A stretch of DNA of 64,000 nucleotides from an uncultured Candidatus Bathyarchaeia archaeon (GTDB taxonomy: Archaea; Thermoproteota; CALKCG01; B24; DRYS01): the NCBI GenBank assembly GCA_964491605.1, contig CAZBGY010000003.1, positions 24,678 through 88,677 on the forward strand, given 5' to 3'. Shown here one piece after another: positions 22,237 to 36,830 of the stretch (positions within the stretch are counted from its first letter, which is position 1; each line of letters starts with the position of its first letter). Made by a program: the position numbers and the translations under genes. The notes beneath the pieces are model-generated. The model was not told where the DNA came from, made no database searches, and worked only from the letters and a program-made list of their open reading frames with translations.

Positions 22237-22324
22237 GCGGGGGTAGCCAAGCTAGGTCTAAGGCGCGGGACTGAGGCTCCCGTGGGGTAGCCCTTCGTGG
22301 GTTCAAATCCCACCCCCCGCACCA
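22237..22324 (+). tRNA. tRNA-Leu (anticodon GAG), encoded CCA
   Basis: Acceptor GCGGGGG/CCCCCGC; anticodon stem CGGGA/UCCCG with loop CUGAGGC; long variable arm; T-arm GUGGG-UUCAAAU-CCCAC; 3' ACCA. Confidence 0.8.
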
Positions 22325-36385: not shown

Positions 36386-36513
36386 TGGTAGCCCGGGGGA
36401 GATTCGAACTCCCGTCGGCGGGGTTCTCCTCCCCGTCGATGGAGATCCAGAGCCTTATGGGAGGGACTGGCCCTACCGCCTCCCGCCATGCTTGGCCGCT
36501 GCACCACCGGGCT
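36386..36513 (-). tRNA. Intron-containing tRNA (about 128 nt; isotype unresolved, possibly initiator-type with A1:U72)
   Basis: Minus strand: acceptor AGCCCGG...CCGGGCU-A-CCA; D-arm GUGC-AGCGGCCAA-GCAU; T-arm GGGAG-UUCGAAU-CUCCC. That leaves about 51 extra nt in the anticodon region. No single canonical 37/38 intron gives a U33 loop by eye. Confidence 0.65.
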
Positions 36514-36563
36514 ATCCTCGACGTATTATTTCTCCTAAGAGTATTTTAAGGATTTTGGTTGGT

Positions 36564-36830
36564 CTATAGAATTTCTGCCGTAGATCCTAGGATAGTCCCA
36601 GGTACTCCTCTATTCATCCTAACTATTACGACCCCATTCCTTCCATGTGTAGCTACTATCTTTCCATGCAGTTTCTTAGTCTCTCTGCTTAACTTAACTT
36701 GTAGGATTAGTTTCCTACCTATTAGTTTTGAAGCTTCAGCATCGGACTCTACGCCTTCCGGTTTAACTAATAGTTGCTTCGAATACTGTTTCTTAGGCCC
36801 GATCCTATATTGTAGGATCCTAGCCTTCAT
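36564..36830 (-). CDS. rpl35ae: Ribosomal protein L35Ae (eL33)
   Basis: 88 aa; LHGKIVATHGRNGVVIVRMNRGVPGTILG pattern. Confidence 0.7.
   Translation of the reverse strand: MKARILQYRIGPKKQYSKQLLVKPEGVESDAEASKLIGRKLILQVKLSRETKKLHGKIVATHGRNGVVIVRMNRGVPGTILGSTAEIL

Follow-up and report, generated by a model that had tools for sequence, protein, structure and literature searches.

A very probable two-intron tRNA-Gln(CUG) gene from a Bathyarchaeia-like hot-spring archaeon

Archaeal tRNA genes interrupted by several introns were reportedly described between 2003 and 2008 in Crenarchaeota, including Thermoproteales, and in Thaumarchaeota (Marck & Grosjean 2003; Sugahara et al. 2007, 2008). As many as three introns in one gene are on record for these groups, above all for Thermoproteales, and the documented non-canonical archaeal intron positions include 29/30 and 53/54 (PMC4090602, PMC8450103). 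A strict bulge-helix-bulge (BHB) splice motif, hBHBh', has by definition 2 or more base pairs in each of its outer helices, h and h' (PMC7714728), and non-canonical and multiple archaeal tRNA introns are a target of the tRNAscan-SE 2.0 design (PMC8450103). A limited literature search returned no published account of tRNA introns in Bathyarchaeia.

The gene described here lies in a 64,000-nt window, the whole stretch of DNA that was analyzed. Its type is already well known: all of its testable features fit the documented multi-intron class, and the new element is the host. We put the probability that the locus is a functional tRNA-Gln(CUG) gene interrupted by two archaeal-type introns at roughly 93%.

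The locus and its detection by tRNA finders

A tRNA-shaped gene of 128 nt, encoded CCA included, occupies 36513..36386 on the minus strand; sequence reading and ARAGORN run with introns allowed (-i) gave the same ends. The gene and its neighbors are listed below.

36386..36513, minus strand: complete tRNA-Gln(CUG) gene (very probable reading), 128 nt, two introns; ends from ARAGORN -i
36388..36386, minus strand: encoded 3' CCA, from sequence reading
36830..36564, same strand as the tRNA gene: L35Ae gene (Pfam Ribosomal_L35Ae)
36542..36550, minus strand: TATA-box-like element CTTAAAATA, spanning -37 to -29 as counted from tRNA position 1, from sequence reading

The acceptor stem reads AGCCCGG/CCGGGCU, with an A1:U72 pair, and is followed by U8 and G9. 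The D arm is GUGC-AGCGGCCAA-GCAU, then G26; the variable region is CGAC (4 nt), the T arm is GGGAG-UUCGAAU-CUCCC and the discriminator is A73. A first-pass annotation had proposed a 128-nt tRNA gene here with canonical acceptor, D and T arms, an A1:U72 pair and a GGGAG/CUCCC T-stem, and all of this is borne out by the sequence. Its sizes of 68 nt for the anticodon region and ∼51 nt for the intron sequence were each one short: the anticodon region spans gene positions 28-96, i.e., 69 nt, of which 17 nt are the mature arm and 52 nt are extra.

The locus forms a 66% G+C island in surroundings of roughly 42% G+C. The tRNA gene had been placed immediately upstream of L35Ae, but in the sense of transcription it starts 50 nt 3' of the L35Ae stop codon, on the same strand. 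The element CCTTAAAA is kept in three related loci (L052, L149 and L152), while the intergenic bases around it vary. Conservation of CTTAAAATA in these loci suggests that it is likely the tRNA gene's own promoter. Six contigs that code for an identical L35Ae protein also carry an identical tRNA gene, and these contigs therefore provide no comparative information.

The generic detectors failed on the unspliced locus. Default ARAGORN made no tRNA call, and the Rfam tRNA model RF00005 gave no match at the gathering threshold and none at E<=10. The same model scored uninterrupted homologues at 56.4 bits (L064) and 61.7 bits (L057), against a gathering score of 29, and missed the two-intron orthologue L052, hence the failure here is caused by the introns. 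The first-pass annotation had named failure of covariance models as grounds for rejecting a tRNA; the unspliced gene does escape the model, but as an artefact of the introns, given homologues at 56-62 bits and the equally missed L052.

When introns were allowed, ARAGORN returned the correct ends with one 52-nt intron, a loop AGGCGGU that lacks U33, and the label Arg(GCG). This 52-nt intron is forced, because ARAGORN places only a single anticodon-loop intron. Generic finders leave such a gene unannotated or, in the case of ARAGORN with introns, name it tRNA-Arg(GCG), and a genome in which it is missed or mislabelled would falsely seem to be without tRNA-Gln(CUG). The chief value of the present analysis is practical, namely correct annotation.

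A T-arm and acceptor scan of the 64-kb window for further intron-bearing tRNA genes found only the tRNA-Gln gene and a tRNA-Leu(GAG) at 22237..22324 (plus strand). The latter is uninterrupted, scores 58.4 bits with the Rfam model and has its CCA encoded, so that not all tRNA genes of the host organism have introns.

Introns, splice motifs and predicted mature tRNA

Every possible intron was scanned for a BHB motif in which the central helix H has 4 bp, each of the two 3-nt bulges is cut behind its second base, and h and h' are the outer helices; this register agrees with the published description (PMC4090602). In the anticodon region only two strict motifs were found, at gene positions 31-59 and 68-90, which divide the gene as follows.

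36484..36513, minus strand: exon 1, gene positions 1-30 (5' strand of the acceptor stem, D arm, G26, first three anticodon-stem bases G27-C28-G29)
36455..36483, minus strand: intron 1, GGAGGCGGUAGGGCCAGUCCCUCCCAUAA, 29 nt, gene positions 31-59, non-canonical tRNA position 29/30; coordinates confirmed by blastn
36447..36454, minus strand: exon 2, gene positions 60-67 (G30 G31 C32 U33 C34 U35 G36 G37)
36450..36448, minus strand: anticodon CUG, in exon 2, gene positions 64-66
36424..36446, minus strand: intron 2, AUCUCCAUCGACGGGGAGGAGAA, 23 nt, gene positions 68-90, canonical tRNA position 37/38
36389..36423, minus strand: exon 3, gene positions 91-125 (C38, CCCGC as the 3' side of the anticodon stem, variable region CGAC, T arm, 3' side of the acceptor stem, A73)

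Each motif is a strict hBHBh', in which a 4-bp H lies between opposed 3-nt bulges and h and h' have at least 2 bp. BHB1, around intron 1, has h AGC/GCU (3 bp), H AUGG/CCAU (4 bp) and h' GAGG/CCUC (4 bp), with bulges CG|G and AA|G. BHB2, around intron 2, has h GG/CC (2 bp), H CUCU/GGAG (4 bp, one of them G-U) and h' UCUCC/GGGGA (5 bp), with bulges GG|A and AA|C; with intron 1 gone, its outer helix h lengthens from 2 bp to the complete 5-bp anticodon stem.

A 17-nt anticodon arm is left by 5,679 models with one or two introns, all of which were enumerated. A 5-bp stem together with Y32, U33 and R37 was obtained in 42 of them, none with a single intron, and in just one of the 42 (31-59 plus 68-90) did both introns have a strict motif. 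The earlier statement that no single-intron model yields a U33 loop was thereby confirmed, as it was by the ARAGORN -i loop. The earlier alternative of two introns or a non-canonical position proved true on both counts (29/30 and 37/38, each with a strict BHB, and junctions confirmed by uninterrupted homologues). When the interior was shuffled, any complete strict-BHB model arose in 1 of 3000 shuffles, so the tRNA gene structure is more than chance. Several further anticodons offered by the enumeration were rejected, for want of BHB motifs at their boundaries.

Owing to a repeated GG, cuts at 29/30, 30/31 and 31/32 would all leave an identical product; sequence alone cannot fix this boundary, and 29/30 is accordingly assigned from the BHB register. 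In the clade of the window, the end of exon 1 recurs at the start of intron 1, GGCGG occupying both gene positions 27-31 and 34-38 (36487..36476, minus strand). Intron 1 of L052 contains GGCGGG, and the repeat is absent from other clades. The GGCGG in intron 1 thus mimics the anticodon stem's 5' strand and may be a trace of the intron's origin.

Removal of both introns gives the 76-mer AGCCCGGUGGUGCAGCGGCCAAGCAUGGCG|GGCUCUGG|CCCCGCCGACGGGAGUUCGAAUCUCCCCCGGGCUACCA, with predicted exon joins ...GCAUGGCG|GGCUCUGG|CCCCGCC.... The spliced 76-mer has an anticodon stem GCGGG/CCCGC and a loop CUCUGGC with U33 and G37, and ARAGORN reads it as tRNA-Gln(CUG), a perfect cloverleaf with all stems perfect. 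It has the 7-bp acceptor, the D arm, the 5-bp anticodon stem with 7-nt loop, the T arm and the discriminator of a cloverleaf, and CUG at 34-36 after splicing, as the YUG anticodon of archaeal tRNA-Gln demands. A1:U72 and A73 are identity elements of tRNA-Gln. They are present here as in all TACK and Asgard tRNA-Gln genes extracted, where they were fixed by the search patterns and so appear by construction.

Homologues and alternative readings

Genomes were searched with the first 26 nt of the gene, variable positions being left open. This 5' pattern matched tRNA-Gln genes in more than 120 TACK and Asgard archaeal genomes, and 90 of the genes extracted were uninterrupted 73-nt tRNA-Gln genes (28 CUG, 61 UUG). 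The uninterrupted tRNA-Gln(CUG) of Nezhaarchaeota WYZ-LMO8 (L064) is identical to the spliced product at 71 of 73 positions and is contiguous across both junctions; that of Bathyarchaeota JZ_bin_14 (L057) is identical at 69 of 73. The exon junctions are borne out by these uninterrupted homologues, and the analysis as a whole shows the gene structure, the splice positions and the CUG identity of the product. The L057 gene lies ∼1.45 kb upstream of a 16S rRNA gene on the opposite strand (1593..3093 of L057), unlike the L35Ae context of the window.

Candidatus Bathyarchaeota archaeon JZ_bin_32 (L052) is syntenic with the window: the two are 79% identical at the DNA level across 4.6 kb and have L35Ae and the F420-ligase gene in the same order. 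The exons of its tRNA-Gln gene are 100% identical to those of the window, and its introns, of 32 and 19 nt, lie at the same two sites and have diverged in sequence. Exon 3 is identical in L052, L066, L149 and L152, and exon 1 is identical in L052. By this sequence comparison the closest genome is a Bathyarchaeota MAG (JZ_bin_32), which points to a Bathyarchaeia-like hot-spring archaeon as host rather than a member of Thermoproteales. The likeness to Thermoproteales tRNA genes drawn in the first-pass annotation thus holds for the type of intron but not for the closest genome.

A metagenome scan was run with an exon pattern containing two open gaps, leaving the introns unconstrained, and returned 33 loci. 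Pooled with the genome matches, these gave 25 distinct two- or three-intron tRNA-Gln(CUG) genes. In all 25 variants each H helix has 3-4 paired positions and each h' helix at least 3 bp, in the same register. Exon base 26 covaries with its intron partner in BHB1, being G:C in the clade of the window and A26:U in others, and the neighboring BHB1 H pair is a G-U wobble in some orthologues. The BHB1 h' stems comprise at least 6 unrelated sequences, all of which pair; for BHB2, h' stems and loops vary across orthologues and the motif is kept in all. The compensatory changes at base 26 and the replaced yet still pairing h' stems indicate that the BHB motifs are under selection. A search of the window and 159 loci for other copies of intron 1 or 2 returned matches in orthologous tRNA-Gln genes only.

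Related Bathyarchaeia (L072, L127, L131, L144 and the L130 group) have a three-intron tRNA-Gln(CUG). The third intron, of 15-18 nt, follows the T-stem 5' strand GGGAG (53/54) and has a BHB helix H CGGG/CCYG; many three-intron genes form just 3 of the 4 H pairs at introns 1 and 2. tRNA-Gln genes with ∼29-nt insertions were retrieved from L015, L054, L058, L063, L110 and L112 (Promethearchaeota/Asgard and uncultured archaea) and from L081, L099 and L114. In Asgard-type MAGs these insertions lie either within the T loop, following GGUUCGA, or within the variable region, not at 37/38, and they look like non-canonical introns at other positions. Candidatus Bathyarchaeota QZM_B1_bin_58 (L034) has a ∼245-nt tRNA-Gln(UUG) gene whose single insertion, placed after position 37, measures ∼170 nt and greatly exceeds in length the other introns in the retrieved tRNA-Gln genes.

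These comparisons bear on the isotype. If the CAU of CCCAUAA were the anticodon, the gene would encode an initiator or elongator tRNA-Met with C33 and introns at ∼31/32 and 38/39. C33 occurs in some eukaryotic initiators, A1:U72 and three G:C pairs at 29-31/39-41 are initiator-like, and the region does hold a CAU followed by AA. However, the required boundaries have no strict BHB, the CAU (gene positions 55-57) sits in the CCAU strand of BHB1 helix H and leaves with intron 1, CAU is not what the spliced product carries at 34-36, and the 71/73-identical uninterrupted homologue has CUG there. A1:U72, moreover, is in every tRNA-Gln gene retrieved, having been fixed by the search patterns. The first-pass annotation had taken the CAU of CCCAUAA to be the only one and had hinted, from it and A1:U72, at Met or an initiator. 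CAU occurs three times in the gene (24-26, 55-57 and 73-75), never as the anticodon, and with the CAU intronic and the anticodon CUG, which is that of Gln, we consider a tRNA-Met extremely improbable. We attach as little likelihood to a tRNA-Arg(GCG) with one 52-nt intron: it is what ARAGORN -i puts out, but its loop has G33 instead of U33, its intron follows position 38, its boundaries have no BHB, the single-intron fit is forced, and the homologues are tRNA-Gln. The enumeration also contains models with a 5-bp stem, U33, R37 and the anticodon CCC, i.e., a tRNA-Gly(CCC) with loop CUCCCAU or CUCCCAC and two introns elsewhere. Those introns are devoid of BHB motifs (best helix counts (0,2,1) and (0,4,0)) and the tRNA body matches tRNA-Gln genes throughout, which leaves a tRNA-Gly with a vanishingly small chance.

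Were the locus a tRNA pseudogene in decay, with the 52 extra nt as insertions that are never spliced out, the failure of standard detectors on it would be accounted for. Yet the exons are 100% conserved against a genome of 79% identity in which introns and flanks have diverged, every stem of the spliced product is perfect, compensatory changes maintain both BHB motifs across the 25 variants, and a conserved TATA-like box lies upstream. Decay of the gene is very unlikely on these grounds, and a functional two-intron tRNA-Gln(CUG) gene is the reading that we prefer.

Proposed splicing route and place among known tRNA introns

For the preferred two-intron tRNA-Gln(CUG) gene, we infer EndA cutting, RtcB-type ligation, the order of splicing, the promoter and expression by analogy with archaeal tRNA splicing (PMC4090602, PMC7714728). 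The primary transcript would probably start at the gene's own TATA-like promoter, about 50 nt downstream of L35Ae. BHB1 would present both splice sites of intron 1, at the 29/30 junction and at the intron's 3' end, in two 3-nt bulges on either side of AUGG/CCAU. In BHB2, a classical 37/38 motif, nucleotides 32-35 (CUCU, the first two anticodon bases included) would pair with the GGAG that lies close to the 3' terminus of intron 2. EndA, the archaeal tRNA splicing endonuclease, would cut each bulge after the second nucleotide, and ligation of the three exons by an RtcB-type enzyme would yield the 76-nt tRNA. Because both motifs are strict hBHBh', a broad-specificity endonuclease would not be required.

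G31-C32-U33 is used twice, in the outer helix of BHB1 and in the outer and central helices of BHB2, so that complete BHB1 and complete BHB2 are mutually exclusive; BHB1 formation also requires opening of two inner D-stem pairs. Constrained folds gave about -49 kcal/mol with BHB1 complete, about -50 kcal/mol with BHB2 complete, and -42 kcal/mol with both motifs present and BHB1 stripped of its outer helix; the unconstrained minimum was -60.7 kcal/mol. The precursor minimum is not unusual (z = -1.07), and its fold, of which only helix H belongs to BHB1, is not the double-BHB form. Competition for G31-C32-U33 makes it likely that the introns are removed one after the other, probably in either order and with refolding between. 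The tRNAscan-SE 2.0 authors describe stepwise removal with refolding in such genes (PMC8450103).

The terminal loop of intron 1 carries GGGCCAG (36473..36467, minus strand; gene positions 41-47). This heptamer is exactly complementary to mature C34-C40 (CUGGCCC), across the junction left by intron 2. GGGC(C/U)(A/G)G is found in most of the intron-1 lineages seen, despite entirely different h' stems, and the loop variants CCAG, CUGG, CCGG and CUAG can all base-pair with the anticodon and the adjacent G37. Once intron 2 is lost, the intermediate is predicted to fold with the 7-bp GGGCCAG helix formed. It is conceivable, though we think it improbable, that intron 1 is more than a passive insertion, and that it would set the order of splicing, mask the anticodon until splicing is complete or serve the excised intron; on the broader form of this idea, a clade of Bathyarchaeia would be a reservoir, so far unreported, of multi-intron tRNA genes that are old and conserved. 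The GGGCCAG motif may equally be a relic of intron origin or of shared ancestry.

Compared with the uninterrupted tRNA-Gln(CUG) genes of L064 and L057, the gene shares A1:U72, the D loop, the T arm and the anticodon loop CUCUGG(C/A), whereas those genes have no introns. With the three-intron tRNA-Gln(CUG) genes of Bathyarchaeia (L072, L127 and the L130 group) it shares the 29/30 and 37/38 introns in the same register; those genes differ in adding a 53/54 T-arm intron, an A29:U41 pair and A38, and often have 3 of 4 H pairs.

The known range of multi-intron tRNA genes, the conserved 29/30 intron included, is extended to a Bathyarchaeia-like hot-spring lineage and its relatives. This is useful for the study of archaeal tRNA intron gain and retention and leaves knowledge of the mechanism unchanged. 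Like the multi-intron genes of Crenarchaeota, Thermoproteales in particular, and Thaumarchaeota, the gene (i) has short BHB-flanked introns and combines a canonical 37/38 with a non-canonical intron; and (ii) is missed or mis-called by generic tRNA finders. It departs from Thermoproteales genes in that both motifs are strict hBHBh', whereas relaxed HBh'/hBH motifs are common there, and, in contrast to the 'intron transposition' of that order, copies of its introns are absent from other genes (window and 159 loci). Finally, multi-intron genes are well documented in Crenarchaeota and Thaumarchaeota, whereas the host here is Bathyarchaeia-like.
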